Positions 24,615-44,013 of a stretch of 64,000 nucleotides of DNA are shown here, piece by piece. Under the pieces are notes generated by a model. That model was not told the origin of the DNA. It saw nothing but the letters and a program-made list of their open reading frames with translations, and made no database searches. How positions within the stretch are numbered: the first letter of the stretch is position 1; every line of letters starts with the position of its first letter. The stretch lies in NCBI GenBank assembly GCA_903832775.1, contig CAILCX010000100.1, positions 41,937 through 105,936 on the forward strand, read 5' to 3'. Both the position numbers and the translations under genes were made by a program. The stretch comes from an uncultured Methylobacter sp. (GTDB lineage: Bacteria > Pseudomonadota > Gammaproteobacteria > Methylococcales > Methylomonadaceae).

Positions 24615-24622
24615 ACAACCTC

Positions 24623-25718: not shown

Positions 25719-25720
25719 GT

Positions 25721-27424
25721 TCAAAATAAAAAATAGCGTTGGGCAAAAGGCAACTCGGCTACAGGCTCGCAGGTTAACAACAGACCGTCTGCGCGCACTG
25801 AATACGTTTGCGGATCAACTTCAATATTTGGTTGATAGTGGTTGTGTATCAAATCTTTTTTTCCGATATTCCGGGTATTTTTAACCATACCAATCCGTTT
25901 TTTCAAACCTAATGTACCGGCAACATCAGCTTCGACAGCGATTTTGGGTAAAAAAAACATCGACGTATAAGACGATGTCACACCGAAAGAACCGAACATC
26001 GGCCGGTAATGAACCGGTTGCGGCGTTGGAATCGATGCATTGGGATCGCCCATGGGCGCTGCGGCAATAAATCCGCCTTTAAGAATCAAACTGGGCTTGA
26101 CCGCAAAGAAAGCCGGATTCCATAGCACCAAATCCGCCAGTTTACCCACTTCGATTGAACCCACTTCATGCGAAATTCCATGACTGATAGCCGGATTGAT
26201 GGTGTATTTGGCAATATAGCGTTTAATACGAAAATTATCGTTGCGCGATGAATCTTCCTTTAGACTGCCCCGTTGTGCTTTCATTTTATGAGCGGTCTGC
26301 CAGGTTCGGATAATTACTTCGCCAACGCGACCCATCGCCTGCGAATCGGAAGAAATCATCGAAAACGCCCCCAGATCATGCAAAATATCTTCAGCGGCGA
26401 TAGTTTCACGACGAATCCGCGATTCCGCAAAAGCCACATCTTCCGCAATACTCGGATCCAGATGATGACAAACCATCAGCATATCCAAATGCTCATCCAC
26501 GGTATTAATGGTATAAGGCCGGGTCGGATTGGTTGAGGATGGCAAAACGTTAGCCTCGCCACAGGCTTTGATAATATCGGGTGCATGACCGCCGCCCGCG
26601 CCTTCGGTGTGATAAGTATGAATGGTGCGGCCTTTAAATGCCGCAAAAGTATCTTCAACAAAACCGGATTCGTTCAGGGTGTCGGTATGAATCGCGACCT
26701 GTATATCATAACGCTCGGCTACGGAAAGACAGCAATCAATAGCTGCCGGCGTAGTTCCCCAGTCTTCATGCAATTTTAAACCCATGGCTCCTGCACAAAC
26801 CTGTTCTTCCAAAGCCACCGGCAAACTGGCATTACCTTTGCCTAGCAAACCAAAGTTCATCGGAAAGCCGTCCAACGCTTGCAGCATGGTATGTATATTC
26901 CAGGGACCCGGCGTACAGGTTGTGGCATTAGTGCCAGTTGCAGGGCCGGTGCCACCGCCGATCATGGTCGTCACCCCCGATGCCAAAGCTTCTTCTATCT
27001 GTTGCGGACAAATAAAATGGATATGCGCGTCAATTGCACCCGCCGTTAAAATCTGCCCTTCACCGGCAATAATTTCAGTGCCGGGGCCGATGACAAGATC
27101 AACACCTGGTTGCGTATCCGGATTCCCGGCTTTGCCGATGCCAGCGATTCGACCGTTTTTGATACCGACGTCGGCTTTGACAATACCCCAATGATCGATA
27201 ATCAAGGCGTTGGTAATCACCAAATCCATGCTTAAACTGCAAGAAATCTGACTTTGCCCCATGCCGTCGCGAATAACTTTACCACCGCCAAATTTGACTT
27301 CATCACCATAAATGGTGCGATCCGCTTCTACTTCAACAAACAAACCGCTGTCGCCCAAGCGTACCCGGTCGCCAGTTGTGGGCCCGAACATGTCGGCATA
27401 AGCTTGCCTGCTAATTCTGCTCAT
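25721..27424 (-). CDS. ureC: Urease alpha subunit
   Basis: [42 protein letters not shown]. Confidence 0.99.
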
Positions 27425-27738
27425 TGCTTTTCCTCCAGCTCGCCCATCACTGCCTGACGAAATCCGTAAATTCTTTTTAAGCCGGCAAAGGCCACTAATT
27501 GCACTTCGCGTTGCTGTCCAGGTTCAAAGCGAACCGCTGTGCCCGCTGGAATATCGGGCCTAAATCCCCGGGTAACTGCACGATCAAACTGCAATGCGGG
27601 ATTGGTTTCAAAAAAATGGTAATGTGAACCCACTTGAACCGGTCGGTCGCCGCTATTTGCTACCACTACTTTAATGGTCTCGCGACCGGTATTTAGTTCC
27701 AAATCGCCGTCGGTGGTAATAATTTCTCCAGGTATCAT
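27421..27738 (-). CDS. ureB: Urease beta subunit
   Basis: [29 protein letters not shown]. Confidence 0.98.
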
Positions 27739-27747
27739 GGCAGTTCC

Positions 27748-28050
27748 CTATTCAATGGGATTATGAACAGTGACCAATTTGGTACCGTCAGGAAAAGTCG
27801 CTTCCACTTGTACATCCGGCAACATTTCCGCAATACCGTCCATCACATCATCACGGAACAGTAGCGTACGCCCAAACTCCATTAACTCGGCGACAGTACG
27901 TCCATCCCGGGCACCTTCCATAATTGCCGCACTGATGTAGGCTACGGCTTCGGGGTAATTAAGTTTCAAACCTCTGGCTTTACGACGCTCAGCCAGTAAA
28001 CCTGCAGTGAAAAGCAGCAGTTTATCTTTTTCTCTTGGTGTCAATTGCAT
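27748..28050 (-). CDS. ureA: Urease gamma subunit
   Basis: [12 protein letters not shown]...LNYPEAVA...[15 protein letters not shown]; ATG at 28050 gives 100 aa. Confidence 0.98.
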
Positions 28051-28075
28051 TGAGTTAGTCCAGTCGTGGTTCCAA

Positions 28076-28909
28076 TCAGGTTGCCCAAATACGTGGCGCA
28101 CAGGCTTTAATCAAGACAGTATCGGGTCGCACCAGCGTCCAGACCTGTTCAAAAAAACTGCGTAGTCGATCGCTACGGTCATCAACCGCCCTGCACACTA
28201 GCATATCATCAATACGGGTTACACCGCGTCCAGGTGAATCAGCGATTAGGCTTTGAATCGACGCCAATGTCTCAGCAGTTGCGGGACTGGCAAAAAAAGT
28301 TCCGCAAGCCGGAAATCCCTGCAAGCCCCAACGCGCAGAAAAGGCCTTTGCATCGATTTGTAAGCGCTCTAAAAACAAAGGCCGCTTGTCACAAAATATT
28401 TGCCAACTCATATCCGCCAGACCCGATGTAAAACCTTCGCCACTGGCAGGTCGACCTAAAGACAAAATTTCCCAGCCAATAAAACGGCCGCCCGTTTCAA
28501 GCTCTACTTTAACCACTGACTTTAAGTTGGCGCCTTCATAAATAATTGTTTCTTGCGGTAGCCATTCCAAGGCAGCATCTTTGGCAATTTTTATAGATAC
28601 TGACTGCATGGCCAACTTACCGGTACTGCGATAAAACTTTCCGGCAGCAGGCGTGGTAAGTAACGCATGACTGCATTCTGCCGCATTGATTAGAATACTT
28701 AAATTATCGCCTGCGACTATGCCGCCGGGCGGATGTAAAATATACACATGACAGACGCCACCTTCAGGATAAAACGGACGCTGTACTGTTAAAGGTCCTT
28801 TATGCTGACGTTTTACCAGCAAGGTCTTATGCTGGTTTGTTGCAAAGCCGAGTTCCAACTCGGCTTGCCAACCCTTCTGAATCTCCTTATTTAATCCCGA
28901 ATGAATCAA
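28076..28909 (-). CDS. ureD: Urease accessory protein UreD
   Basis: [33 protein letters not shown]. Confidence 0.96.
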
Positions 28910-28915
28910 TCTGTG

Positions 28916-29500
28916 TTACCCAGCCAACAAAACCACAAATGCCGTGGAGCAGGTTAATCCGAGGCTAATCCGAAGGACATTTAGCGTCTTGCCGCCCTGC
29001 AAACCGGCGACAAGTCCCAAGCCTTGCAAGTGGGCAGTGGCAAATAAAAAACCTAAGACATAAGTTATTTTGTCTGCGTCGATTGTGAGTTCTGAAGCAT
29101 GGACATAGCCATGACACAAAGCAATGGTAGCCACCATGCCAAGCGCTGTAAAAATTGAAGTTCGGAGGTTAAATCCCAGAATAAGTCCGAACGCCAACAG
29201 CGACAAGAGCACTCCTTGTTCGGCAATTTGCAATGTAAAGCCGAGAGCATTTAATCCGGCGCCAGCCGCCATCATGATTAAAAAAGTTAAGGGTAAAGCC
29301 CAAATCATTTTACCCGCCAATATAAAGCCCCACAGACCGATTGCCAAAATCACTAACAAATGATCAATTCCCTGCAAAGGATGTAAAAAACCATCGGCAA
29401 AGCCCTGCGCTGAGTTTGCGCCGGTATGGGCGAATACGGGACTGGCCAGAAATGAAAGCAATAGTCCCGTTAGTAAAGTTTTTATAGTGTGCCTAGTCAT
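28916..29500 (-). CDS. ureJ: HupE/UreJ family nickel transporter
   Basis: AHTG..., GFLHPLQGIDHL, HGYVHASE, multi-TM; ATG at 29500 with GGGAG RBS. Confidence 0.9.
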   Translation of the reverse strand: MTRHTIKTLLTGLLLSFLASPVFAHTGANSAQGFADGFLHPLQGIDHLLVILAIGLWGFILAGKMIWALPLTFLIMMAAGAGLNALGFTLQIAEQGVLLSLLAFGLILGFNLRTSIFTALGMVATIALCHGYVHASELTIDADKITYVLGFLFATAHLQGLGLVAGLQGGKTLNVLRISLGLTCSTAFVVLLAG

Positions 29501-29685
29501 AGTTACTATCTCCCTATTAATATTTAGAATCGAGCAACGGCCACGACCCATTATAACGATTGCGTTCTCAAACGAGTTTTAAATTCATTTGCCGGTAGAA
29601 TGAATCTTTAGTCATGGGTTGCGAGTTACCTTAACAGGTCGTAGCACGAAAATGGATTAAGCTTTAAACAGAATCGGAACGGACC

Positions 29686-30918
29686 TTAAATCTGCCATTG
29701 AAAACCAAGGTTCATGGCATTAACGTTGGCGCCTGTTGCTCCGGTTGTGTAATTCTGGCCTTTGGTCATCAAGTCGCCGTACAGCCAGCTCAGGGAAATC
29801 TTGGCATTATGGCCGTCAATAACATAGTTGACACCCGCTTCATAAACATCGCGGGACGAACTGCTGACCGGATGTACATCAACGTAACGCACAAAAGGTT
29901 GCGCCTGACCTATCCAGATTTTTTGCGGAAATAAATACATGCCGCTGACATCGTAAGCGTTGCCTTCAAACAAGGAAAATCCTGTGTTGGCTATTCTGGA
30001 AGCCATGTTGTAACCTGAAATGCCGTAGTTTTTATATTCTCCGTTTACAGTTACTACGCCGCTATTGGGCAATACTTTTTCCACCAACAGATCAACAGTC
30101 GTGCCACGAAAGCTTGCTGGATCAGCTGCAGAACCGGCGCCACCTTGCTGATACTGATTCGACAACCCGACAGTCAAAATATCGCCGCCTTTACCGAAAT
30201 AAGTCCCCGAGGTGTAATAGCCTGGATTTTTTTCTACTTCCCAAAAATTGTAGGCGACGCGCTGTCCATACAGAATGTTGTCATTGACGTTAGCACCACC
30301 TCTTAAACCTCTAAAGAAACCAAAGGCATATTGCAAACGACCACCCATAAACGCCCCCCAAACCGTGGCGCCATCGTCACGTCCCCTGGAACCGGCAGAG
30401 GTGCCGTCACTCTTTATGGTTCCGTTATAATCTGAAGGTTCAAACGGCGTTCCTGCTGAATAAATATTGTAAACACCACTGTAGTAAGGACCGTTCATTT
30501 CCCGACGTTCTGCGGGCACCAACATTCGACCTACCCATAAATTATACATGGGGTCGATTTCAAACTTGCCAATAGCATCCAATACCCTGACTTCGCCACC
30601 ATTGCCACAGGTTGGACATTCAGTATTAAACTCAACCTTTAAATATTTATGAATTTGGCCATTCAAGTACAAACGAATACTGTCCAGATTGAAATCATTA
30701 GTCCACCTTTTATCGCTTCCGGCACCCGCGGCTGCTTCTTGCGAAGAGAAACTGGTACGTAAGCCGGCCCCAATACTAACCCATTTGGTATCATCAATTT
30801 TAAAAGTCGCTCCTGCATAAGAATCGGTCATTTGACCCGCGGCCAATCCCGACAATAATGCCGTAGCGAGCAATCGATTTTTTCTAGCGCCTGCTTGATG
30901 TTGGATATAATCTTTCAT
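29686..30918 (-). CDS. Outer-membrane porin, short-chain amide/urea porin (FmdC-like)
   Basis: Signal peptide, alternating beta-strand pattern, C-terminal FQWQI, located between urt and ure genes. FmdC likeness is from recall. Confidence 0.78.
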   Translation of the reverse strand: MKDYIQHQAGARKNRLLATALLSGLAAGQMTDSYAGATFKIDDTKWVSIGAGLRTSFSSQEAAAGAGSDKRWTNDFNLDSIRLYLNGQIHKYLKVEFNTECPTCGNGGEVRVLDAIGKFEIDPMYNLWVGRMLVPAERREMNGPYYSGVYNIYSAGTPFEPSDYNGTIKSDGTSAGSRGRDDGATVWGAFMGGRLQYAFGFFRGLRGGANVNDNILYGQRVAYNFWEVEKNPGYYTSGTYFGKGGDILTVGLSNQYQQGGAGSAADPASFRGTTVDLLVEKVLPNSGVVTVNGEYKNYGISGYNMASRIANTGFSLFEGNAYDVSGMYLFPQKIWIGQAQPFVRYVDVHPVSSSSRDVYEAGVNYVIDGHNAKISLSWLYGDLMTKGQNYTTGATGANVNAMNLGFQWQI

Positions 30919-31018
30919 CTAAAGTCCCCTTGTTCATAAGCACAAATGTGAATGCATTTGCCCGAGAGCAAAGCCGCCAAAACTGGCAATCGTATTGTTC
31001 CGTTTACAGCCTATGCTT

Positions 31019-31056
31019 ACAATCCGTCAGATGACTCATCAGTCATTTGACGTATG
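31019..31056 (-). promoter_or_regulatory. Candidate operator copy A (tandem GTCA-N2-TGAC boxes) upstream of the porin-ureJ-ureDABCEFG unit
   Basis: ACAATCCGTCAGATGACTCATCAGTCATTTGACGTATG; 36/38 identical to 38779-38816. Confidence 0.8.
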
Positions 31057-31314
31057 CCCGGTAAAGCTTAAATTGATTGGGGTGAGGATATGTTTTTTAC
31101 TTAAAAATTCGAGTATGACTTTTTTGAGGATTCAAAATAGGATTTATGAAAAAACGCTTGCCCGAATCTTATCCCATGATCGGGATGACTGAGCCAGAAG
31201 GTGAATTATTTGGAAAAGGAATTTATCGAATTTACACCAGTGCAAGAAATTACACTCGAATTTCAAGTAGGGTAAAGCTTTATGTTGGGTGATGCGAAGG
31301 AAGTTTTTAGTGTT

Positions 31315-31854
31315 CTATAAAACCGTCAAATCCTTGCTGCATTCGGTATGAATCAGATTACCGCTACGTTGCAGCATAAAATAGCCTCGAGTTAAGGCCT
31401 CTTTTTTGGCCTCGTCATTAATGTGAAATGAGGCAATTGCGCCATATTGTTTATAGTCTTTAAACCAAGGAAATAATTGTTTGAAATTGCGCATTTTCCG
31501 GTCCAATTTATCCAAATCATTGGTATGCGCTTTATATTTGACTTCTACAATGCCGACGACATTACCATTGGTCATAATAATGTCATATTCTTCTTCGGTT
31601 TTGCCGCGACGCTTATGACTGTTTTTCTCGATGTCGTCAAAGTGAATGTTACCTAAATGAGCGTCATTGGCTAAACTGTTAAAGAAAAATTCTTCGGCAA
31701 CTTCGCCTTGGTTATTGGTTACACTGCCCAAGGTAATACCGAGACGCTCCAACTTTTCATCAGTGCGCCTCATTTGTTCATCAGTACGATCTTGAGAAAC
31801 AGCGAGACTTGCCACTAACGCCTTTAATTCATCATCAGTCATTTTATGCTCCAA
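31315..31854 (-). CDS. Coiled-coil + PD-(D/E)XK-like protein (DUF3782-like)
   Basis: MTDDELKALVASLAVSQ coiled coil, then GEVAEEFF, EEYDII, IVEVKYK nuclease-like signature. Confidence 0.75.
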   Translation of the reverse strand: MEHKMTDDELKALVASLAVSQDRTDEQMRRTDEKLERLGITLGSVTNNQGEVAEEFFFNSLANDAHLGNIHFDDIEKNSHKRRGKTEEEYDIIMTNGNVVGIVEVKYKAHTNDLDKLDRKMRNFKQLFPWFKDYKQYGAIASFHINDEAKKEALTRGYFMLQRSGNLIHTECSKDLTVL

Positions 31855-31912
31855 ATCTTTTTTGACTTGGATGATTCTAACATAACACTCCGTTACATAG
31901 GCATAAACTCAA

Positions 31913-32602
31913 TTAAACAGACAAATAAGCCTTAATCTTTGCCGCATCGACTTCGCCGCGCTTATCTTCATGAATAAACTTGCCTTTATCCATCACAATA
32001 ATGCGATCGGCCACTTCCATAGTAAAACTCAACACCTGCTCAGAGACGATAATGGTAATCTCGCGCATTTTTCTGATTTCATTTAAAACCTTGGCAATAT
32101 CTTTGATGATGGAAGGCTGAATGCCTTCGGTCGGCTCATCCAGCAATAAAACTTTAGGGTTGGTAACCAGGGCGCGCGCAATGGCCAATTGTTGTTGTTG
32201 ACCTCCGGAAAGGTTACCGCCCTTGCGCTTGCGCATGTCAAACAACACCGGAAACAAGGCGTAGATATCATCAGGAATTTCCAAGGATTTGGCTTTTTCC
32301 AGTCCTGTTTCTATATTTTCCTGCACGGTCATGGTCGGAAAAATCATCCGCCCTTGCGGAACATAAGCCAAGCCGCTGGCGACACGCTGATAGGTTGCTA
32401 CGTCCTGGAGATTAACGCCATCAACCTGCGCTTTAAAGGCTTTACTGGGCAGGATGCCCATCAGCGACTTGAACAAAGTCGTTTTACCCATGCCATTTCT
32501 ACCCATAATGGCCAGGGTTTCGTTTTTTTCGGCCTTAAAACTTAGCCCGTGAATCACTTGGCTTTGGCCATAACTGACTTGTAAATCTTCAATTTCAAAC
32601 AT
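31913..32602 (-). CDS. urtE: Urea ABC transporter ATP-binding subunit UrtE
   Basis: GRNGMGKT, LSGGQQQQL, LLDEPTEGIQPSII. Confidence 0.93.
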   Translation of the reverse strand: MFEIEDLQVSYGQSQVIHGLSFKAEKNETLAIMGRNGMGKTTLFKSLMGILPSKAFKAQVDGVNLQDVATYQRVASGLAYVPQGRMIFPTMTVQENIETGLEKAKSLEIPDDIYALFPVLFDMRKRKGGNLSGGQQQQLAIARALVTNPKVLLLDEPTEGIQPSIIKDIAKVLNEIRKMREITIIVSEQVLSFTMEVADRIIVMDKGKFIHEDKRGEVDAAKIKAYLSV

Positions 32603-32650
32603 GTTCTTATTCCTGTTATGTATTGATAAGCTATTGAACGATCAGCCAGA

Positions 32651-33394
32651 CTAATGTCCCAGATAAACTTCAATGACCTTTTCATCTGCCTGAATATGCT
32701 CCATAGAACCTTCGGCAAGGATTTTACCCTGATGCAGCACCGTGACTTTGTGTGCGATTTTTTTAACGAATTCCATGTCGTGCTCAATCACCAACACCGA
32801 GCGGTTTTGACAAATTCGCTTAAGTAACTCCGCCGTTTGATCGCGCTCCTTTACACTCATACCTGCAACCGGTTCATCCAGCATCAACAATTCCGGGTCT
32901 TGCATCAACAACATGCCAATCTCCAGCCATTGTTTTTGGCCATGACTAAGCAAAGCCGCTTCCATGTGTAACTGCTCGGTCAGTAATACTTCGGCTGCAA
33001 TTTTGTTGACTTGCTCACTCACCGCTGCGGTGCGTTTAAAGGTCAAACTGCCCCACACCGATCTTCCTACCGGATAAGACAATTCAAGATTCTGATATAC
33101 GCTTAGGTTTTCGTAAATTGAAGGCGTTTGAAATTTTCTGCCGACGCCGGCTCTAACAATCTCGTGCTCAGAGAGCATGGTCAGTTCTTGATTTTTAAAT
33201 TTGATGGAGCCTGAAGATGATTTTGTTTTTCCGCAAATCAAATCAAGGACAGTGGTCTTACCTGCGCCATTCGGCCCGATTACCACACGCAGTTCATTTT
33301 TATCGATATACAAAGTTAAGGCATCAACGGCTTTAAATCCGTCAAAAGAAACGGTCAAGTCTTCAAGCGCCAGGACAAAGTCAGTATTACTCAT
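32651..33394 (-). CDS. urtD: Urea ABC transporter ATP-binding subunit UrtD
   Basis: GPNGAGKT, GVGRKFQTP, LSHGQKQWLEIGM. Confidence 0.95.
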   Translation of the reverse strand: MSNTDFVLALEDLTVSFDGFKAVDALTLYIDKNELRVVIGPNGAGKTTVLDLICGKTKSSSGSIKFKNQELTMLSEHEIVRAGVGRKFQTPSIYENLSVYQNLELSYPVGRSVWGSLTFKRTAAVSEQVNKIAAEVLLTEQLHMEAALLSHGQKQWLEIGMLLMQDPELLMLDEPVAGMSVKERDQTAELLKRICQNRSVLVIEHDMEFVKKIAHKVTVLHQGKILAEGSMEHIQADEKVIEVYLGH

Positions 33395-34536
33395 GCTTTT
33401 TCTCCGATTAATTTGGCGACTTTTTTACCGGATTTCGCCAGGTAGCTGGAGACAAGTTCATTCACCTTGAATTGCTTAGCATATTTTTCATAGATTCCCG
33501 CCAAACCGTCAGGAAAAAACATCACCACCGCGATAAACAAGCCGCCCATTAAAAACAGCCACAACTCGGGAAAAGTCTCGGAGAACATGGTCTTGCCAAA
33601 GTTAACCAGTAACGTGCCATAAACCGCGCCGATCAGGGACATGCGTCCGCCCACCGCCGCAAAAATCACCATTTCAATTGAAGGAACAATCCCCACAAAA
33701 CTGGGTGACATAAAGCCGATTTGCAGCGTAAACATGGCTCCGCCAATTGCCGAGATCATCGCTGCAACACAGAATATAAATATCTTGAAATTAGAAACGT
33801 CATAACCCGAGAATCTGACCCGCTCTTCTTTATCGCGCATTGCCAGCAACAACATGCCGAATTTGGAGGTCAAAATGTAACGTGCCAATAACATGCAAGC
33901 GATTAACAAACCGGCATTGGTAAAATATAAAATGTATTTGGCACTGTCGGTTCTTATATCCCAGCCCAATAGCGTTTTTAAGTCGGTAATTCCGTTAACG
34001 CCACCGGTATAACCTTGCTGACCGACAATCAAAATACTTAAGATCAGGGCAATCGCCTGGGTAATAATCGCAAAATAAACCCCGCCTACTCGACGTTTAA
34101 ACATCGCATAGCCAATGATAAAAGCCAACAAAGTCGGAACCAGCAATACAAGTATCAGTGTTAAGGGCAAGCTTTTGAAGGGCTGCCAAAAAAAGGGAAT
34201 TTCCGTCAACTGATTCCAATCCATAAAATCAGGGATTCCGGGTGTTGTTTGGATTTTGGTACTGACCGGATCAGAAGCTTCAAGTTTGAGGAACATCGCC
34301 ATGCAATAACCGCCCAAACCAAAAAACATACCCTGGCCCAGGCTCAAAATACCGCCGTTGCCCCACAACAACACCAGACTAATGGCGACAAAAGCATAAG
34401 TGACATATTTACCCAAAAGTCCCAGTCGAAACAAATCCAGCCATAAAGGAAAGACCACAAAAAGCATTAGCGCCAGTATCGCCAAACCAACAGCGCCCTG
34501 CTTTCCACCTAACAATTTATCTGATAGCGTGTTCAT
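33391..34536 (-). CDS. urtC: Urea ABC transporter permease UrtC
   Basis: LSLGQGMFFGLGGY, GVYFAIITQA, SIEMVIFAAVGGR. Confidence 0.95.
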   Translation of the reverse strand: MNTLSDKLLGGKQGAVGLAILALMLFVVFPLWLDLFRLGLLGKYVTYAFVAISLVLLWGNGGILSLGQGMFFGLGGYCMAMFLKLEASDPVSTKIQTTPGIPDFMDWNQLTEIPFFWQPFKSLPLTLILVLLVPTLLAFIIGYAMFKRRVGGVYFAIITQAIALILSILIVGQQGYTGGVNGITDLKTLLGWDIRTDSAKYILYFTNAGLLIACMLLARYILTSKFGMLLLAMRDKEERVRFSGYDVSNFKIFIFCVAAMISAIGGAMFTLQIGFMSPSFVGIVPSIEMVIFAAVGGRMSLIGAVYGTLLVNFGKTMFSETFPELWLFLMGGLFIAVVMFFPDGLAGIYEKYAKQFKVNELVSSYLAKSGKKVAKLIGEKA

Positions 34537-34548
34537 TTTTATCTCCCT

Positions 34549-35466
34549 TTATTTACGCACTTTAGATGCAAACAAACCCTCGGGTCGCATCATCAAAATA
34601 ATTACAATCGTCATCAAGGTAGAGACTTTACCCATGGAACTGGTCATAAAAAACTGCAAAATCGATTGCGCCTGAGCGATGCCAAACGCTGAGGCAATGG
34701 TGCCCATCAAACTTGCCGCACCACCAAACACGACCACCATAAAACTATCAACAATATACAGCGAGCCTGTGGTCGGCCCCGTTGAGGAAATGGTGGTAAA
34801 TGCCGCTCCCGCAACCCCCGCAATACCACAGCCTAAAGCGAAGGTAAGCCGGTCGACTTTTTGGGTATTAATCCCGACAGCACCGGCCATAATCCGGTTT
34901 TGCATGGTTGCCCGAATACGCAAACCGCCTCTTGAACGAAACATAAAAAGATAAACGCCAACTGTAACTATCAAGGCCAAAACCATGACGAATACCCCGT
35001 TAATTGGAATATCAATATCAGGAGTTGGTTTAAACGAGCCGAGTAGCCATTCCGGTAATTCGGCACTGACTTCTTTGGCACCAAAAGTGGAACGAAATAT
35101 TTGTTGCATGACCAGACTTAAACCCCAGGTCGCAAGCAAAGTATCCAACGGACGTTTGTAAAGATGTCTGATCAACAAGTATTCAATGAAATAGCCTATA
35201 AAAAAGGCCAGGATGAATGCCGCAATAATGGCAAAAATAAAATAAGAATCAACGATCTCGTATTTGACCGCCAATTTTGACATGAACACCGTGGTATAGG
35301 CGCCTACCGTCATAAACTCACCATGAGCCATGTTGATCACGCCCATTTGACCAAAGATAATGGCAAGACCTAACGCCATCAGCAGCAATACACTAAACAG
35401 GCTCAATCCGGAAAAACCCTGCATCACCACAATGTTGCCTACTTCCTCCATCGTATATCCAAACAT
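34549..35466 (-). CDS. urtB: Urea ABC transporter permease UrtB
   Basis: GQMGVINMAHGEF, RPLDTLLATWGLSL, YIVDSFMVVVFGG. Confidence 0.95.
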   Translation of the reverse strand: MFGYTMEEVGNIVVMQGFSGLSLFSVLLLMALGLAIIFGQMGVINMAHGEFMTVGAYTTVFMSKLAVKYEIVDSYFIFAIIAAFILAFFIGYFIEYLLIRHLYKRPLDTLLATWGLSLVMQQIFRSTFGAKEVSAELPEWLLGSFKPTPDIDIPINGVFVMVLALIVTVGVYLFMFRSRGGLRIRATMQNRIMAGAVGINTQKVDRLTFALGCGIAGVAGAAFTTISSTGPTTGSLYIVDSFMVVVFGGAASLMGTIASAFGIAQAQSILQFFMTSSMGKVSTLMTIVIILMMRPEGLFASKVRK

Positions 35467-35518
35467 AACCAGCCTCCAGCTAACTCACTTCACTTACACA
35501 AAATTCAGGTTTTGCATC

Positions 35519-35552
35519 ACCATAGCAGCCTAAAAAACATGACTGCTATGGT
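35519..35552 (-). other. Intercistronic stem-loop after urtA
   Basis: ACCATAGCAG-N14-CTGCTATGGT, in the position typical of mRNA-stabilising hairpins after binding-protein genes. Confidence 0.55.
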
Positions 35553-35571
35553 TTGATTCAAGACTTATGAC

Positions 35572-36822
35572 TTATTGGTAACCTTTAGGAAATGGATCTG
35601 GAGCAATCAACTCAGACTCGTAAACCACATCCGCTTGCCCGTCTTTACGCCATTGACCAATACGTAACTTGCTAAACAAATGGTGGTTCGGATCAACCTT
35701 GACATAACCTTCAGGAGCAGTGGTTAACTCGTAACCGGGTAAGGCAACAACGGCTTTATCGACGTCAAAACTGCCTGCACGTTCAACTGCAGCTTTCCAT
35801 AACCAAGGTCCCAAATAGGCAGCTTGGGTTACGTCACCGATTACGGCAGCTTCGCCATAAGCCTTTTTAAATTCAGCTACAAATTTTTCGTTGTTAGGAT
35901 TTTTCAAACTTTGAAAATACTTCATGGCTGTATAGAAGCCTTCCAGGTTTTCGCCGCCAATACCCAATACTTCGTCTTCAGTAACTGAAATAGTCAGCAT
36001 GGTTTGTTTTTTAGCATTCAAACCGGCTGCATTCAATTGTTTAAACCAGGCAACATTACTGCCACCGACAACTGCGGCATAAATAACATCAGGTTTTTTT
36101 AGCTTGATTTTGTTAATCACAGAACCAAACTGCGTATCACCCAAAGCCACATATTCTTCGCCAACAACCTTGCCACCCAAGTGTTGTTCAATATGCTTAC
36201 GGGCGATTTTCATGGAGGTACGTGGCCAAATATAATCTGAACCAATCAGATAATAGGTTTTTGCCTTTTTCTCTTTTGCTATCCAATCCAAACCGGCAAG
36301 AATTTGTTGGGTAGCTTCCTGTCCTGTGTAAAACACGTTTTTGGATTGTTCCAGACCTTCATAAAAGGTAGGATAAAACAACAAACCGTTGTCTTTTTCA
36401 AAGACGGGAAGTGCGGCTTTTCGTGAGGCCGAAGTCCAACAGCCAAATACCGCAGCTACCTTGTCATTTTCCAACAGTTTTTTCGATTTTTCGGCAAAGG
36501 TAGGCCAGTCGCTGGCGCCATCTTCCTGAATCACTTCAATCTTTCTGCCCAGAATACCGCCCATTTCATTAATCTGGGCAATTGCCAGCTTTTCAGCCTG
36601 AATGGAACCTGTTTCACTGATGGCCATTGTGCCGGTTGCTGAATGAAGAATACCGACAGTTACCGACGTGTCAGTAACCGCAAGCCCAGTTGTATTAACG
36701 ACTGCCGTTGGAAAATCTGCTGCAGTCGCATTATTTATGCCTAACGAAAGACCCAAGGCAAGCGATATGCCCGCGACAACGGCGCTTTTTTTAGCAAACT
36801 GACTTTTATAAATGTTACCCAT
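35572..36822 (-). CDS. urtA: Urea/short-chain amide ABC transporter substrate-binding protein UrtA
   Basis: GILHSATGTMAISE, EDGASDWPTFAEK, FGCWTSASRK, YPTFYEG, GSDYIWPR. Confidence 0.96.
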   Translation of the reverse strand: MGNIYKSQFAKKSAVVAGISLALGLSLGINNATAADFPTAVVNTTGLAVTDTSVTVGILHSATGTMAISETGSIQAEKLAIAQINEMGGILGRKIEVIQEDGASDWPTFAEKSKKLLENDKVAAVFGCWTSASRKAALPVFEKDNGLLFYPTFYEGLEQSKNVFYTGQEATQQILAGLDWIAKEKKAKTYYLIGSDYIWPRTSMKIARKHIEQHLGGKVVGEEYVALGDTQFGSVINKIKLKKPDVIYAAVVGGSNVAWFKQLNAAGLNAKKQTMLTISVTEDEVLGIGGENLEGFYTAMKYFQSLKNPNNEKFVAEFKKAYGEAAVIGDVTQAAYLGPWLWKAAVERAGSFDVDKAVVALPGYELTTAPEGYVKVDPNHHLFSKLRIGQWRKDGQADVVYESELIAPDPFPKGYQ

Positions 36823-37014
36823 TAGTTTCTCCTAATTAAAAAAATCAAACACACTCAACATTCATTCCCTAAACTGACAACATCCTGCATAACTCAACAC
36901 CTACTTAAAATGCTTACCTCTTTAAAAATGATCATGGGATTTGGCGGGCTATAATCGCCAAAAGTTTAATTACTCAGAATGAATCAATTCGCCCCTTCAG
37001 TACTTTCATTAATT

Positions 37015-37359
37015 TCAATGCCCCAACATCCAGGGCCTTGCTGTTTTCCTGGTTTGCATCTGAAAGCCATTCCCCGCTTGCTCCTGGTTTTTGACTTGTT
37101 CTGTTTTAGTGCTACAAGTATGACCACCGGTACAGCCGCAACTGGATCGGCGAGCTGTTCTTGGCTCATGAGCTGACTTTTCATTTCGCTCATGAGCCAT
37201 GCGCAGGGACTGGCCCAAAAGCGCATAATTTGGCACTGAAATCAAACGGTTACTAATTCCTCCACAGTTGTCACAAAATGCCGGCATGCTTGCTTCACTC
37301 ATCTTTCTGAGTGAAGTAAAAGGGCCACAATCATTACAGCGATATTCATATAAAGGCAT
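37015..37359 (-). CDS. fmdB: FmdB-family zinc-ribbon protein
   Basis: MPLYEYRCNDCG...CDNCG, directly downstream of formamidase. Confidence 0.88.
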   Translation of the reverse strand: MPLYEYRCNDCGPFTSLRKMSEASMPAFCDNCGGISNRLISVPNYALLGQSLRMAHERNEKSAHEPRTARRSSCGCTGGHTCSTKTEQVKNQEQAGNGFQMQTRKTARPWMLGH

Positions 37360-37387
37360 ACGCCCAACTCCTTTTTACAGTGTTCAA

Positions 37388-38611
37388 TTAGCTGGTTTTT
37401 GCCATATCGGTACTGCCGGAAATAATTATCTTGGGACCTTCAGCGTTGGGTTTTAAATCAAAATCAAAGATTTCTGTCGGTAGCCATAGCGTTGCACAAG
37501 CATTGGGTATATCGACAACACCACTGATATGACCTTCCACCGGCGCTGTGCCTAAAATTGACAAAGCCTGGGCGCCGCTGTAACCAAATTTTTTCAGGTA
37601 TTCAATTGCGTTTAAACAAGCCTGGCGGTAAGCGACATGAACATCCAGATAATGCTGTATGCCCTGTTCATCAACAGAAATACCCTCAAAAATAATATAA
37701 TCACGATACGAAGGCGTTAAGGGACTTGGCTGGAAGATTGGGTTTTTGATGCCATATTTCTTGACACCGTCTTTAATCAGGCTGACTTTAATATCCAGAT
37801 AACCGGCCATTTCAATAGCGCCACAAAAAGTAATCTCGCCATCGCCTTGTGAAAAATGCAGGTCGCCCATGGAAAGGCCGCCATCTTTGACGTAAACAGG
37901 GAAAAATACTTTCGAGCCTTTGGTAAGATTTTTAATGTCACAATTTCCGCCATGTTCACGCGGCGGAACTGTTCGGGCGCCTTCTGCGGCAGCCGCTTTG
38001 GCTGCATCACCGGTCAGTTTGCCCATTACCGCAGACTGCGGATTGGGCGGCAGTGCCAAGGCCGGAACCCGTTCGGGATCAGTAGCAATCAGATCGGCTT
38101 CCCGTTGATTCCATTTTTCCAGGAGCTCCCGTGAAGGCAAACAGCCAATCAGGCCAGGATGCATAATGCCTGCAAATTTAACATTGGGAATATGTCTTGA
38201 GGTGGTGTAAATTCCGTGAAAATCCCAGATCGATTTACGTGCCTCGGGATAATGATCGGTCAGGAAGCCGCCGCCATTTTCTCTTGAAAACAAGCCATTA
38301 AAGCCCCATTGCTGATCATCGAAAGTACCTACGTCAAGAATGTCGACCACCATCAGATCGCCAGGTTCAGCGCCCTCAACACCGATGGGCCCGCTCAGAT
38401 AATGCACTTGCGTTAAATCCACATCACGTACATCATTAGCACTATCGTTGTTGCCGATTTGACCACCGGTCCAGTCCATGCATTCCACACGGAACTCATC
38501 GCCCGGTTTGACCATTGCCACCATAGGCAGATCGGGGTGCCAGCGATTGTGAATCAGGCCGTCCTGTTCCCAGGGTTTTTTATCAAGATCCAATTTAATT
38601 AACGTTTTCAT
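37388..38611 (-). CDS. fmdA: Formamidase (acetamidase/formamidase family)
   Basis: HNRWHPD, HYLSGPI, PPREHGGNCDIK, GDLHFSQGDGEITFCGAIE. Confidence 0.96.
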   Translation of the reverse strand: MKTLIKLDLDKKPWEQDGLIHNRWHPDLPMVAMVKPGDEFRVECMDWTGGQIGNNDSANDVRDVDLTQVHYLSGPIGVEGAEPGDLMVVDILDVGTFDDQQWGFNGLFSRENGGGFLTDHYPEARKSIWDFHGIYTTSRHIPNVKFAGIMHPGLIGCLPSRELLEKWNQREADLIATDPERVPALALPPNPQSAVMGKLTGDAAKAAAAEGARTVPPREHGGNCDIKNLTKGSKVFFPVYVKDGGLSMGDLHFSQGDGEITFCGAIEMAGYLDIKVSLIKDGVKKYGIKNPIFQPSPLTPSYRDYIIFEGISVDEQGIQHYLDVHVAYRQACLNAIEYLKKFGYSGAQALSILGTAPVEGHISGVVDIPNACATLWLPTEIFDFDLKPNAEGPKIIISGSTDMAKTS

Positions 38612-38676
38612 GCCGCTACCTGCCTAACTGTGAATTCCAATAAAAACAAATTACTGTTTCGGACAAAATCATTCAT
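38608..38676 (-). CDS. Putative 22-aa leader ORF coupled to fmdA (MNDFVRNSNLFLLEFTVRQVAA)
   Basis: GAGGGAG RBS before the ATG at 38676; its TGA overlaps the fmdA ATG (ATGA). Too short for the ORF track. Confidence 0.45.
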   Translation of the reverse strand: MNDFVRNSNLFLLEFTVRQVAA

Positions 38677-38778
38677 TTACAGTCTCCCTCGCTCAAAAAA
38701 CCAAATGTAAAAGTATTCGCAGTAAAGTGTCGCTGCGAAAACTGGCGTGATTAATTATTTGATTTTCGGCCACTCTGC

Positions 38779-38816
38779 ACAATCCGTCATATAACTCATC
38801 AGTCATTTGACGTATG
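38779..38816. promoter_or_regulatory. Candidate operator copy B between fmdA and the divergent hypothetical/HK/RR unit
   Basis: ACAATCCGTCATATAACTCATCAGTCATTTGACGTATG; 36/38 identical to 31019-31056. Confidence 0.8.
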
Positions 38817-38870
38817 GCAAGAAATGGCTGATTTTTATATGATAATTAACAACTTATTTAGGAGTGCGTC

Positions 38871-39629
38871 ATGAACAGGTTTCATATACAGACAAACTAT
38901 GCCGTGTTCGGTTTACTGTTTTTTAGTGGTCTGGTTTGTCCTGCAATGGCTGCAGAACTAAAGCCTGAGAACATTGCTAAAGCGGAAATTAGCGCAATAC
39001 AGTTTAGTCTTGTCGATGACAATCTTGACCAGTTTGGCTTCGGTCTTTCTTCCAGTTTGATAACTGAACGGGTGAGCAAGAATCTGGCTGAATGGCACTA
39101 TCCAGTCAAGCTTAACGAAACCGGCTATTCCCATATACTTGAAGCGACACTGGGTAGAATTGTGAATGAGGAAACGCCGACTGGCTTTTCTTACAGCAGC
39201 GGCAACTCTGATCCCCGCTCGCCCCAATTTCAAAAGGCCAATGTTTTACCTATCAGCTGTCGCTTAAAAAAAGTCGGTAGCAAAGACACTAACGCGGAAA
39301 ATAAGATGACTTTTAGTGTCTATCAACTTTCTGGCGGCTTTAGCCAGACTAAGGTCGCTGACAAGTTGGTAGATCAGATCAGTACTGCTTGCCTTAGTTT
39401 GTTGGAAGAGTTGAAACTACCCACGGCAGGAAACACAACGGACAGCAGCACCTTCAAACCAACCTGGATGCCTGAGTTACGGGTCGAAGTCAAGCAAGTC
39501 CCGGAACCTGCAGATCCTAAAAATACCAAGCCCTCTGTTACTGAAAGTAACGATAATGGCCGTAAACAGATTATCATCTACAACCAAGGTTCACCGCTGA
39601 CTATTGATTTTGGTCATGTGCGACGTTAA
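38871..39629 (+). CDS. Exported hypothetical protein
   Basis: GGAG RBS, signal peptide (…CPAMAAE), 252 aa, no family recognised. Confidence 0.78.
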   Translation: MNRFHIQTNYAVFGLLFFSGLVCPAMAAELKPENIAKAEISAIQFSLVDDNLDQFGFGLSSSLITERVSKNLAEWHYPVKLNETGYSHILEATLGRIVNEETPTGFSYSSGNSDPRSPQFQKANVLPISCRLKKVGSKDTNAENKMTFSVYQLSGGFSQTKVADKLVDQISTACLSLLEELKLPTAGNTTDSSTFKPTWMPELRVEVKQVPEPADPKNTKPSVTESNDNGRKQIIIYNQGSPLTIDFGHVRR

Positions 39630-39701
39630 GCGTTCATGAAATAACCGCATGGAGTTTAGCCGAGGCTTAAGTTTTTTAAATAATCTAATGAATCGAGCGC
39701 C

Positions 39702-42700
39702 GTGAAAGCTAAAATCCACCAAAACATCGAAAAGATTCGTCGCGACTATAACGCGCTGGTGGCCAATGAAACCATGGAAGACTATGCCTTACGCTACGCA
39801 CCGCGCAGTTTCCGAAAATGGTCAGAGTTTGAGGTCGCCAACACCGCGTTTGGCTCTACCTCCTTTCTGGTGCTGGAAGCCATTGGCGGCTTTCTGTCGA
39901 TCAACTATGGTTTTACCAACGCTTTTTGGGCAATTCTGATTGCCGCTGTGGTGATCTTTATTACCAGTCTGCCGATCAGTTATTACGCCGCCCGCTACCA
40001 TATTGATATTGATTTGCTAACCCGTAGCGCGGGGTTTGGTTACATTGGTTCCACCGTCACATCCCTGATTTATGCCTCCTACACTTTCACGCTGTTCGCG
40101 CTGGAAGCCTCGATCATGTCACTGGCGATTGAGCTGTATTTCCATATCTCGTTACCGATTGCCTATGTGATCAGCGCTGTACTTGTCATACCTTTGGTAA
40201 CTTTCGGTATAACCACTATCAGCCGCATGCAGTTATGGACTCAGCCCTTATGGCTGATTATGTTAATTGCACCTTATGTAGCCGTTGCAATGCGCGAACC
40301 CGAAGCGATGCCCATCTTACAAACCTATTTTTGGTTTGCAGGCACCGGACAAGGTTTTGACTGGCTGTTATTCGGGGCCGCGTCCACAGTGGCTTTCTCA
40401 ATGATGGCGCAAATCGGCGAGCAGGTGGATTTTTTACGTTTTATGCCGGAAAAAACCCAGTCAAACAAGTATCGCTGGTGGCTTGCGATGCTGGCAGGCG
40501 GACCGGGCTGGATTGTATTTGGTGCAACCAGACAATTGCTGGGAGCTTTGTTGGCACATTTGGCGGTACGCAATGGAATCAGCCCAGAGCATGCCCATGA
40601 ACCTACGCAAATGTATTTGACTGCCTATAATCAGCTTTTCGACAATCCTCAATGGGCCTTGGCCGCTACCACACTGTTTGTCATTCTCAGTCAGATTAAA
40701 ATCAATGTGACCAATGCTTATGCCGGCTCGTTGGCCTGGTCTAATTTCTTTTCGCGACTGACGCATAGTCATCCGGGACGGGTGGTCTGGTTGTTTTTTA
40801 ATGTCATGATTGCGTTGTTGCTGATGGAATTTGGCGTTTTTGGTGCCCTGGAAAAAGTGTTGGGTTTGTTTTCCCATTTGTCGATAGCCTGGATCAGCAC
40901 CATTGCCGCCGAATTAATGATCAACAAACCCTTAGGTTTAAGTCCTAAAATAGTCGAATTCAAGCGTGCCTACCTGCCTGACCTGAATCCGGTCGGCATT
41001 TTATCTACCTTTTTCGCGTCTTTATTGTCGATAATGGCTTACTTGGGGCTTTTTGGCGAATTACCCAAAGCCTTTTCGGCGTTTATTTCCCTGGGCCTGG
41101 CTTTTATGCTGACACCCGCGATTGCCTGGCTTAGTCGCGGCAAACATTATCTGGCACGTAAGCGCGATGAGAATAACCAGAAATCACACAGCAAATGCAC
41201 CATTTGTGAAAACGACTTCGAACACGAAGACATGGCCTATTGCCCGGCCTATGCCGATAGCATCTGCTCGCTGTGTTGCACACTGGATGCGCGTTGCCTT
41301 GATGCCTGCAAGGTTGGTTTTCGTTTCGATGATTATCTGGAGGATATCGCTACACGCTTCCTGCCAGCAAAAATGACCATGACTTCCCGCTTGCGCTTTT
41401 TACGTTTTGCCCTGATGTTCACCTTTCTCTCTGCGTTGACCGGGATTTTTGTCAGTATCATTTATTATCAGGATTTATTAAGCGTTGAACACAACTACCA
41501 CGCTTTTAATTTATTGCTATACAACTTTTTCAAAGTTTATGCGGCTTTACTGGTTTTCATCGGTTTATGTACCTGGTGGCTGGTCTTGAATGACGAAAGC
41601 CGACGCGTTGCCCAGGAAGAAATTGCCAAACAAACTCAGCGACTGGTAATGGAAATTGCCGAACATAAAAGAACCGATGCCAAATTACAGCAAGCCACTA
41701 AAATGGCAGATCGTGCCAACAGCGCTAAAAGCCGTTTTTTAAGCAGTATGAGCCACGAAATACGAACCCCCTTAAACAGTATTGTCGGTTACGCCTATAT
41801 TCTGCAAAAAGATCCGACCATCCCGGCACATCGAAAACAAGCCGTCGATATTTTGAAACGGAGCGGCGAACATTTATCCTCATTGATTGAAGATATTCTC
41901 GACATTGCTCGTATCGAGGCGCGTAAATTTGAGCTGCGGCAAGAGCCAATTGATTTTCCGAATTTTATTGAACATCTGGTCAATATCTTCAAGCCGCAAG
42001 CGGAAGCAAAAGGCTTATCCTTTTACTGCCAGATTCTCAACACACTGCCTCAGCGGGTTCGAGGAGATGAAAAGCGGGTCGGGCAAATACTCATCAACCT
42101 GCTTGGCAATGCAATTAAATTTACTACGACTGGCGAGATCGTTTTTCGTATTGGTTACAGTTGTGGCGTAACGACTTTTCAGGTGGTCGATACCGGTCCC
42201 GGCATCCATGAAGATCAACTGCAAAATATTTTTCAGCCTTTCACTCAATTACCCAACGAGAATTTAGGTTCGGGAAGCGGACTTGGACTTACCATCAGTA
42301 AAATCCTGTCCGAAATCATGGGTGGTGAACTGGCTGTGATTAGCGTTCCTGATCAGGGTTCTACGTTTACCGTACGCTTGTTGTTGCCGAACCTTGGGGG
42401 CGAGCAACAATACCTTCAGGAAGAAGATATAACCGGCTATGAGGGCCGTCGTCAAAAAATATTGATTGTCGATGATCAACCGGAACATCGGCATTTAGTA
42501 ATGTCTATTTTGGCCCCCCTGGGCTTTATTGTTATTGAGGCCTGTAGCGGCGAAGCGTGTCTGGTTCAAGTACAGCAGCAGTTGCCGGATCTCATTTTGC
42601 TGGATTTATCCATGCCTGGACTTGATGGTACTGAAACGGCCCGTCAACTTCGCCAGCAAGGCTATGCAACGCCAATTGTGGTATTGAGCGCAAATGCTTA

Positions 42701-43079: not shown

Positions 43080-44013
43080 TAAATCTATTCAAAGTAACGG
43101 TATCGTGATGATTGTCGATGACACTCCCGGCAATCTGGCGTTGTTGTCTGATACGCTTTCAGAAGCGGGTTACCGCGTCCTGGTTGCAACTGACGGGCAA
43201 TCGGCTCTGGAACAAATTTCCTTTTTAAAACCGGATATCATTTTGCTGGACGTTATGATGCCGGGTATTGATGGTTTTGAAACCTGCAATCAACTTAAAA
43301 CAAATCCTGAAACAGCTCATATCCCGGTATTATTTATGACAGCATTAAACGAGCTGGATAATTTGTTACGTGGCTTTGAAGAGGGCGCTGTAGATTATCT
43401 TGTGAAACCGATACGTCCTCCTGAAGTTCTGGCCAGAGTGGATATCCAGCTCACGCAGTCCCGCAATCTGCAACGCGCTGAAAATGCACTACTTAACAGT
43501 TCTTTCACTGCGTTGGTAATCGACTTTAACGGAGTGATAACCTGGTTAACCCCCGGTGGCAAAGCCTGGCTTGACGATTTTATGCAAAAACATATACTGG
43601 CCGGCCAAACTGAAGTGGGTTCGGTGTTGCCTAAACCATTACTGGATTGGGTTACGCAACAAAACGCAGTTGCTGATAAATCGCTAGGGACGGTTTTTGA
43701 AAGTCACCGCAAGGGTGTCGATTTTTCGGCAAAAATATCACCTTGCCAAAACACCGGTGAATATTTGCTGGTCATGGAAAAACATTCAGGTGAATGGGAT
43801 CTTGAATCGGTTAAAAGCAGCTTGGGGCTTACTTTTCGTGAAGCCGAAATTCTTATGTGGATTTCCCGAGGTAAAACCAATAAAGAAGCGGGCATCATTT
43901 TGGGTAGTAGTCCGCGTACCATTAACAAACATCTTGAACATATTTTTGAGAAACTGGGTGTCGTTACACGTGCTGCTGCGGTTTCAATGGTATTGCAACG
44001 GACTTCAGGTTAA
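43072..44013 (+). CDS. Response regulator, REC + LuxR-type HTH
   Basis: IVDD, LLDVMMPG, VKP; LTFREAEILMWISRGKTNKE..LGSSPRTINKHLEHIFEKLGV; ATG at 43072 overlaps the kinase stop. Confidence 0.93.
   Translation: MINKSIQSNGIVMIVDDTPGNLALLSDTLSEAGYRVLVATDGQSALEQISFLKPDIILLDVMMPGIDGFETCNQLKTNPETAHIPVLFMTALNELDNLLRGFEEGAVDYLVKPIRPPEVLARVDIQLTQSRNLQRAENALLNSSFTALVIDFNGVITWLTPGGKAWLDDFMQKHILAGQTEVGSVLPKPLLDWVTQQNAVADKSLGTVFESHRKGVDFSAKISPCQNTGEYLLVMEKHSGEWDLESVKSSLGLTFREAEILMWISRGKTNKEAGIILGSSPRTINKHLEHIFEKLGVVTRAAAVSMVLQRTSG

Follow-up and report, generated by a model that had tools for sequence, protein, structure and literature searches.

A proposed tandem 7-2-7 operator in two copies of a promoter cassette: a candidate urea/formamide regulon in a Methylobacter genome

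Organisation of the locus

The stretch of DNA analysed here (the window) comprises 64,000 nucleotides (nt) of an uncultured Methylobacter sp. (contig CAILCX010000100.1, positions 41,937 to 105,936 of the forward strand). The element in question is a segment that occurs in it twice, as copy A in front of a porin gene and the urease genes and as copy B in front of the genes of formamidase and urea uptake. Each copy carries a strongly conserved 38-mer, built of two inverted repeats, which is proposed below to be the operator of a response regulator encoded close to copy B. The genes concerned are arranged as follows.

24003..30918, minus strand: unit A, nine genes (porin, ureJ/hupE, ureD, ureA, ureB, ureC, ureE, ureF, ureG)
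31913..38611, minus strand: unit B, with fmdA (formamidase), fmdB (zinc ribbon) and urtABCDE
38871..43079, plus strand: p252 and the hybrid kinase gene, divergent from copy B
43072..44013, plus strand: response regulator with REC, a long helix, a PAS-like domain and a LuxR/GerE helix-turn-helix (HTH), the proposed operator-binding protein

Unit A is headed by an FmdC-like porin of 410 amino acids (29686-30918, minus strand), the first gene downstream of copy A, while in unit B the product of fmdA matches the NCBIfam formamidase model at 6e-239. The protein p252 (38871-39629, plus strand; 252 amino acids) is secreted and has no Pfam match; in Methylococcales it is kept between the operator and the kinase, and many of its homologues have a lipobox-like cysteine. 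The core of its AlphaFold model (pLDDT 73.5) resembles three lipoproteins, LptE, PelC and Cj1090c, with TM-scores that are low (0.3-0.5), and p252 is possibly a lipoprotein of the outer membrane that works with the porin or with the sensor.

The hybrid histidine kinase (39702-43079, plus strand; 1125 amino acids) has HisKA, HATPase and REC domains, an N-terminal half with multiple transmembrane segments and a Cys-rich linker. The regulator, of 313 amino acids, matches Pfam Response_reg (2.1e-29) and GerE (5.1e-13). It had been described in an earlier note on this DNA as a REC-LuxR protein, and both these parts are present, but the AlphaFold model (pLDDT 70) places between them an additional PAS-like beta/alpha domain at about residues 144-238. 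The protein thus exceeds the compact two-domain NarL/FixJ architecture of about 200-220 amino acids and represents a variant of it; Foldseek pairs the model with FixJ, LiaR and StyR, and its PAS-HTH half with VqmA. The regulator gene begins, with its ATG, inside the last 8 nt of the kinase gene (43072-43079), and this overlap suggests translational coupling of the two.

The proposed tandem operator and its duplication

The earlier note had described three blocks shared by the two copies, and all of them were located at the positions and spacings claimed. Block i (30943-30961 and 38702-38720) is identical at 15 of 19 positions, block ii, AAAACTGGC, starts at 30979 and 38738, i.e., 36 nt after the start of block i in both copies, and block iii is the 38-mer, identical at 36 of 38 positions (95%). 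The parts of the 38-mer are as follows.

31019..31056: copy A 38-mer, with 16-bp units at 31023-31038 (promoter-proximal) and 31039-31054 (distal)
31026..31035 and 31042..31051: copy A 10-bp cores, GTCAGATGAC and GTCATTTGAC
38779..38816: copy B 38-mer, with 16-bp units at 38783-38798 and 38799-38814
38786..38795 and 38802..38811: copy B cores, GTCATATAAC (one mismatch) and GTCATTTGAC

The 38-mer consists of two abutting 16-bp inverted repeats of the 7-2-7 type, with centres 16 bp apart. Across the family the consensus box is TACGTCA-NN-TGACGTA, that is two 7-bp inverted half-sites separated by a 2-bp gap, and the tandem form of Methylococcales reads ATAC-GTCAttTGAC-TGATGA-GTCAtaTGAC-GCATTG. 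The tandem GTCA-N2-TGAC operator proposed in the earlier note is therefore present as two 16-bp boxes, but the core is not perfect in every one of them, since the promoter-proximal box of copy B (GTTATATGAC on the minus strand) has one mismatch to it. Likewise, the 38-mer stands as the putative operator, but the unit of recognition would be the 16-bp 7-2-7 repeat, which is doubled here.

The pair formed by copies A and B was the top-ranked direct repeat in a repeat search of the 10.5-kb region, and a 29-mer pattern derived from the 38-mer has only two matches in the window, one in each copy, where shuffled sequences lead one to expect 0.00. In a MAFFT alignment of the copies, 60 of the 102 promoter and leader columns outside the 38-mer are identical (59%), and at this background identity the binomial probability of at least 36 matches in 38 is 6.5e-7. 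A true duplication with a 38-mer under much stronger constraint follows from this difference, and the two copies are taken to be paralogues. The duplication claimed earlier is thus borne out, but not its extent of about 115 bp: the likeness extends over the ribosome-binding site (RBS), the ATG and some 20 nt of the coding region (15 of 21 identical; about 7 codons), which gives a module of about 165 bp.

These two are the only strong operator sites in the window, within which no further site was better than 3-4 mismatches. A third perfect GTCATTTGAC does occur at 30827-30836 (ATCGGTCATTTGAC, 13/14 to the operator), inside the signal-peptide codons of the porin gene. As an additional operator it was rejected; it is probably a chance match, because 19 other porin genes lack it at the corresponding position.

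Distribution of the proposed operator across genomes

Two comparisons were made, one starting from the regulator and the other from the motif. The regulator-first sample comprised 80 loci (1.34 Mb) around regulator homologues, which range from 93% down to about 40% identity and come from Methylococcales, Burkholderiales (including Methylophilus), Spongiibacteraceae and a metagenome-assembled genome (MAG) of Verrucomicrobiaceae; one of the search seeds was T[IV]NKHLEH, a part of the recognition helix. Judged by the homologues of its regulator, the source organism belongs to the Methylococcales and is close to Methylobacter. In most of the 80 loci urt, fmdA, porin or urease genes accompany the kinase-regulator pair. 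Among the Methylococcales, 20 loci have the tandem motif (at most 3 mismatches), each of them once, and a 3-mismatch outlier from a single locus brings the number to 21; the motif is always intergenic beside the regulator operon, between the porin gene or fmdA and p252. Outside this group of Methylococcales a single 16-bp box is present instead (Caballeronia, Ralstonia, Bordetella, Paraburkholderia, Methylophilus, Herbaspirillum, Spongiibacteraceae and the Verrucomicrobiaceae MAG), and the single form also occurs in some Methylococcales. With at most 3 mismatches allowed, the 16-mer box had 86 matches in these loci versus 22-30 in shuffled sequences, and 73 of them lie within 700 nt upstream of a gene of the system. 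As the earlier note had anticipated, the motif co-occurs with this regulator family in other genomes, the box adjoining kinase-regulator homologues in 55 of the 80 loci. In Methylophilus a lone box is situated about 150 nt upstream of the kinase gene, with TAGCAT at +27 (the offset defined below) and no adjoining urt, fmd or porin gene.

The motif-first scan, in which the exact tandem pattern was searched for in metagenome contigs, returned 57 stretches. A porin, p252, fmdA or kinase gene lies within 700 nt in 46 of them, and the other 11 are without the ATAC/GCATTG flanks, which indicates that, within the reach of these scans, the motif belongs specifically to the system rather than being a generic repeat. 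In the window, with its two strong sites, the generic repeat that the earlier note had considered was not encountered. The 11 remaining stretches (L089, L093, L094, L111, L115, L122, L130, L132 and L140-L142) have no urea or amide genes and carry TTAAGTCA...TGACTTA flanks; apparently they are members of one or several families of repeats or operators that are unrelated to this one.

Promoter geometry

The distance from the box to the promoter was examined by scoring hexamers similar to a -10 element (A at position 2, T at position 6, at least 4 of 6 matches), with offsets counted from where the 10-bp core ends. Such a hexamer starts exactly at +27 in 50 of the 101 box-to-gene pairs, whereas any other offset was found 0-9 times; the peak holds on both sides of divergent regions, and a minor second peak at +43 is due to the distal boxes of tandems. 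In the window the following elements are predicted.

31017..31022, minus strand: weak -35 TTGTAA of the porin/urease promoter, abutting the operator (based on a conserved gcATTGTg in aligned upstream regions)
30994..30999, minus strand: AACAAT as -10 of the porin/urease promoter, at offset +27
38777..38782, minus strand: weak -35 TTGTGC of the promoter of the fmdA-urt unit and the upstream open reading frame (uORF) preceding it
38754..38759, minus strand: -10 AATAAT of the same promoter, 27 nt from the core edge
38838..38843, plus strand: TATGAT as -10 of the divergent p252-kinase-regulator promoter, at offset +27 from the opposite core edge

Across the loci, the side facing the porin gene, fmdA or urtA has a -10 of AATAAT, TAATCT or similar, and a weak -35 (TTGTRN or TTGCTG) that abuts the box, while the side facing p252 or the kinase gene has TAnAGT, TATGAT or TAGCAT and no recognisable -35. 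When the predicted -10 is set at -12 to -7, the proximal 16-mer falls at about -51 to -36 with its centre at -43.5. Such a geometry, with a -10 at +27 from the core, a poor TTGTRN -35 and a site centred near -43.5, corresponds to the class-II pattern, where the activator site is centred at about -41 to -44 and abuts or overlaps a poor -35, and would be typical of an activator-dependent sigma-70 promoter. The start sites are predicted near 30987 (minus strand), 38747 (minus strand) and 38850 (plus strand).

In copy A the equivalent of the divergent -10 is TGGGGT, so that a -10 is present on the porin side only. Judged by these elements, copy A is one-sided and copy B is a bidirectional control region, which would imply autoregulation of the kinase-regulator operon. 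The roles that the earlier note had assigned to the copies, in front of the porin/urease and the formamidase/urea-uptake units, are retained, but copy B also faces the p252-kinase-regulator operon. The one-sided porin copies of three genomes (the window, L084 and L092) keep both boxes while the surrounding sequence has diverged in all three, and this suggests that two dimers cooperate on a single promoter, rather than merely serving one divergent promoter each.

A promoter dependent on sigma-54 and NtrC was rejected, in agreement with the earlier note, which had seen no convincing sigma-54 or NtrC site in either copy. A loose consensus (GG-N10-GC, -24/-12) has 332 matches in the window against 334 expected, and none is conserved in either module; only one match (30984-30999) falls within a module, and it has the wrong orientation and no counterpart in copy B.

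Origin of the duplication

The RBS and the ATG that the earlier note had reported on the minus strand downstream of each copy are present in both, but the ATG of copy B does not open fmdA.

38608..38676, minus strand: uORF of 22 codons, whose TGA overlaps the fmdA ATG as ATGA

The first codons of this uORF are homologous to the start of the porin gene (ATGAAtGATTtT versus ATGAAaGATTaT, encoding MNDF and MKDY). In most relatives the porin gene lies directly opposite p252, and in L014 a porin leader nearly identical to copy A is found at this ancestral position. In the window, in L084 and in the L092/L114 contig, a block of fmdA-fmdB-urtABCDE is situated between the operator on the p252 side and a second operator-porin unit; this two-copy layout is thus common to L084 (93% DNA identity over 21 kb) and to the distant L092 contig, whose regulator is 63% identical. 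These arrangements argue that the duplication probably arose by insertion of fmdA-fmdB-urtABCDE behind the ancestral porin promoter. The insertion would have duplicated the promoter, the leader and the first codons of the porin gene, and the uORF in front of fmdA would be the scar of this event.

In L114 a homologous uORF is in another frame and stops early, and fmdA has its own RBS, GAGGAGG, from which it follows that the uORF peptide is not conserved. The uORF of the window may still serve translational coupling into fmdA, because its stop codon and the fmdA start codon overlap. Between urtE and copy A there is also an open reading frame (ORF) of 179 amino acids (31315-31854, minus strand) with a weak match to PD-(D/E)XK nucleases, in place of which the L084 sister genome has an ORF of 203 amino acids; it may have come in together with the inserted cassette, as a passenger.

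The 5' leaders

Blocks i and ii had been presented in the earlier note as parts of the promoter module, but both are located downstream of the predicted -10, within the 5' leader, and they match two hairpins that are seen in nine related porin leaders.

30976..30987, minus strand: leader hairpin 1, GCCAGTTTTGGC, containing block ii and placed at or near the predicted 5' end of the transcript
30943..30960, minus strand: leader hairpin 2, CAAATG-cattca-CATTTG, which is block i

In the related leaders hairpin 1 takes the form AGCCA-loop-TGGCT and hairpin 2 the form GCATyyGG-loop-CCrrATGC. Over the 12 pairs of the two hairpins in the nine leaders, 88% of cells are paired, against 29-46% in slid controls; 7 pairs show compensatory changes, and none of 500 shuffles reached the observed covariation score. 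This evidence is weak, because the nine leaders were picked by eye, a covariance model of the two hairpins recovered from 48 sources only its nine training sequences, so that the pair of hairpins is not shown to be general, and the stability of the window leaders is not significant (z = -0.7, -1.3 and -0.4). From their sequence, blocks i and ii look like remnants of two leader hairpins that are largely lost in copy B. The ompA mRNA has a stabilising hairpin at its 5' terminus, and by analogy the best guess is that the leader hairpins are of this kind.

A known RNA family was rejected for the leaders, with no match in Rfam 15 at E<=1 in either module. An ANTAR or attenuator reading was rejected as well: loop length and sequence vary, the A1/G4 hexaloop pattern is missing, and no ANTAR domain is present in the neighbouring proteins. 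Elsewhere in unit A, Rfam 5_ureB_sRNA matches the plus strand at 26989-27274 (E 8e-28, 107.7 bits), in antisense orientation to the beginning of ureC, which most probably reflects conserved urease coding sequence and not a conserved antisense RNA.

Proposed mechanism and alternative explanations

Each copy is proposed to be an activator-dependent sigma-70 promoter cassette, in which an operator is joined to a weak -35 and a -10, followed by a structured 5' leader and then by RBS and start codon, under the control of the adjacent REC-PAS-LuxR regulator (probability about 0.7). In this model the hybrid kinase would sense urea or short-chain amides through its permease-like membrane domain and phosphorylate the regulator, whose dimers would then occupy both boxes. 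The promoter-proximal dimer, at about -43.5 and touching the -35, would recruit RNA polymerase in class-II fashion. Copy A would drive porin-ureJ-ureDABCEFG only, while the symmetric copy B would serve uORF-fmdA-fmdB-urtABCDE on one side and p252-kinase-regulator on the other, thus providing positive autoregulation. Conservation, geometry and gene linkage are observed; we infer what binds the site, which way control acts, where transcription starts and what is sensed.

That the 38-mer is the operator of the adjacent regulator, as the earlier note had proposed, is supported by both the regulator-first and the motif-first comparison. The regulator is the preferred candidate for the binder since the box tracks the kinase-regulator operon across three classes and stands alone upstream of the Methylophilus kinase gene, since a 7-2-7 inverted repeat is the classical site of a NarL/LuxR-type dimer, and since SPRT(I/V)NKHLEHIF, the recognition helix, hardly changes even where overall identity is down to 40-45%. 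Of the other candidates, FmdB has no gene in most loci with the box, and p252 is a secreted protein.

Several observations weigh against this assignment. It was made through co-localisation only, and the conservation of the recognition helix is partly circular, T[IV]NKHLEH having served as a search seed. An operator with porin and p252 genes, but with no kinase and regulator downstream, is found in L128, L133 and L138, and conversely some kinase-regulator loci have no box nearby. On the side of signalling, no HPt domain for the hybrid kinase was recognised in the Pfam and NCBIfam output, and the membrane domain of the kinase matches no Pfam family and no PDB sequence, so that the ligand is guessed from the regulon. 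Finally, the spacer between the cores is 5 nt instead of 6 in two MAGs (L014 at about 2400 and L017 at about 4600), where the tandem reads GTCAAATRAC-TGATA-GTCATCTGAC and the box centres are 15 bp apart; strict phasing between the boxes is therefore not essential.

The alternative that survives best, though it is still unlikely, is that the 38-mer is the operator of another factor, such as a nitrogen-status regulator or FmdB, and that the adjacent regulator acts elsewhere. It draws on the same dependence on linkage and on the operator-bearing contigs that lack an adjacent kinase and regulator, and the fmd genes of Methylophilus methylotrophus are also repressed by ammonia, which calls for some nitrogen input. 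Against it stand the tracking of the kinase-regulator operon over three classes, including the lone Methylophilus site, the absence of fmdB from most box-bearing porin-urt loci, and the 7-2-7 repeat, which suits an HTH dimer of the NarL/LuxR type where no sigma-54/NtrC architecture is seen. Only slightly less probable is that the boxes are bound by the regulator but serve mainly repression, or a dual mode of control. Whether control is positive or negative is deduced, regulators of the NarL family can repress, and the tandem spans about 32 bp between two divergent promoters; yet the boxes lie upstream of the -35 and not over the -10 or the start site, the -35 is weak (TTGTRN) or, on the p252 side, absent, as in activator-dependent promoters, and CrbR and LuxR, which provide precedents of the same geometry, activate.

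Two further explanations are very improbable. The blocks could act as RNA, i.e., as a riboswitch, an attenuator or the target of an ANTAR-type antiterminator, which would agree with the compensatory changes in the leader hairpins downstream of the -10 and with the AmiR antitermination used by amide operons of Pseudomonas, but the 38-mer is upstream of both predicted promoters and would stay untranscribed, and the Rfam search, the variable loops, the lack of an ANTAR protein and the ordinary stability of the window leaders (z -0.7 and -1.3) all speak against it. Equally improbable is that the likeness is a mere trace of duplication, or a mobile or generic repeat, with no regulatory role, for although the duplication is real and reaches coding sequence, the 38-mer is much better conserved than the remainder of the segment and persists across genera at a fixed distance from -10 elements; only two strong matches lie in the 64 kb of the window, and those in the 1.34 Mb of related loci cluster in control regions.

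Relation to known systems

The proposed mechanism, a LuxR-type activator placed beside the -35, is conventional; the system itself is widespread and seemingly unstudied. No experimental study of the kinase-regulator pair was found in full-text literature searches, and one genome paper notes the adjacency of urt, kinase and LuxR-type regulator genes in a Pseudomonas relative, without functional work. The closest studied analogue is the acetate system CrbS/CrbR (MxtR/ErdR) with its ACTU motif, which also consists of a hybrid kinase with a transporter-like membrane domain and a LuxR-family regulator (PMC5715377). The ACTU inverted repeat is located at -52 to -36, directly before an RpoD promoter (PMC5715377), and the imperfect repeat described here lies, at a predicted -51 to -36, likewise directly upstream of a sigma-70 -35. 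In both cases the regulon comprises genes for uptake and first-step catabolism of the presumed signal. Among the features of the SLC5/STAC class (CrbS/R, RpuS/R), the HisKA-HATPase-REC kinase, the LuxR regulator and an inverted repeat before the -35 of the predicted promoter are found here, but a sequence-level Pfam search of kinase residues 1-640 (E up to 10) detected neither an SLC5/SSF nor a STAC domain, and a Cys-rich linker is present instead. The regulator also differs in its extra PAS-like domain, the box in its sequence and in being doubled, and the substrate is a different one; moreover, copy B serves two divergent promoters.

Similarity to the lux box of LuxR concerns the position of the inverted repeat, which is centred at about -42.5, overlaps or abuts the -35 and mediates class-II activation, and similarity to VqmA, a PAS-LuxR HTH protein, is suggested by the structural match of the C-terminal PAS-HTH half of the modelled regulator. 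Unlike both of these, the regulator has a receiver domain for its control and not an autoinducer-binding domain.

NarL and NarP of E. coli bind 7-2-7 sites with the heptamer TACYYMT. The regulator described here belongs to the same NarL/FixJ (GerE HTH) family, and its putative site is likewise made of inverted heptamers with a 2-bp gap, each starting with TAC. The heptamer is TACGTCA, however, so the specificity differs, the signal would be nitrogen compounds in place of nitrate or nitrite, and the regulator is about 100 amino acids longer due to the PAS-like insert. Substrate-inducible control of amidase and urease is also exerted by AmiC/AmiR of Pseudomonas and by UreR of plasmids and Proteus, but AmiR is an ANTAR RNA antiterminator and UreR an AraC-type activator; neither type is encoded here, and neither mechanism fits.

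The physiological parallel is the fmdCABDEF cluster of M. methylotrophus, in which formamide and urea induce and ammonia represses (Wyborn 1996 and Mills 1998, via PMC10781810). The cluster likewise combines the porin FmdC, the formamidase FmdA, FmdB and a binding-protein-dependent amide/urea transporter, and neither a regulator nor an operator was defined for it, FmdB being only suggested as a positive regulator (PMC10781810). Genomes of Methylophilus have homologues of the kinase and the regulator as well as the box. A difference is that in the window the porin gene stands apart from fmdA, at the head of the urease operon. The induction of the cluster by the two substrates, which was shown experimentally, fits the physiology of the proposed regulon.

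Significance

For methanotrophs and methylotrophs, urea and short-chain amides count among the important sources of nitrogen. Induction of the fmd genes has been known since the 1990s without an identified regulator (PMC10781810), for which there is now a precise candidate together with a 16-bp candidate operator; the promoters are predicted to the single nucleotide, and the box is common to lineages from Methylococcales through Burkholderiales. A broader view, which is tentative and held at somewhat under even odds, is that the kinase-regulator pair and the TACGTCA-NN-TGACGTA box constitute the urea/formamide sensor of many Proteobacteria, including the fmd system of Methylophilus. According to it, the operator was doubled into a symmetric two-dimer switch in the methanotroph lineage, the promoter cassette was copied to capture an incoming fmdA-urt cassette, and a porin-derived uORF would couple translation into formamidase. 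The duplication exemplifies growth of a regulon by copying of a whole promoter cassette. If the proposed control is true, porin, ATP-binding cassette transporter, formamidase and urease would form, together with their own sensor, one compact regulon, and its promoters may offer a possible urea- or formamide-inducible tool for the engineering of methanotrophs.

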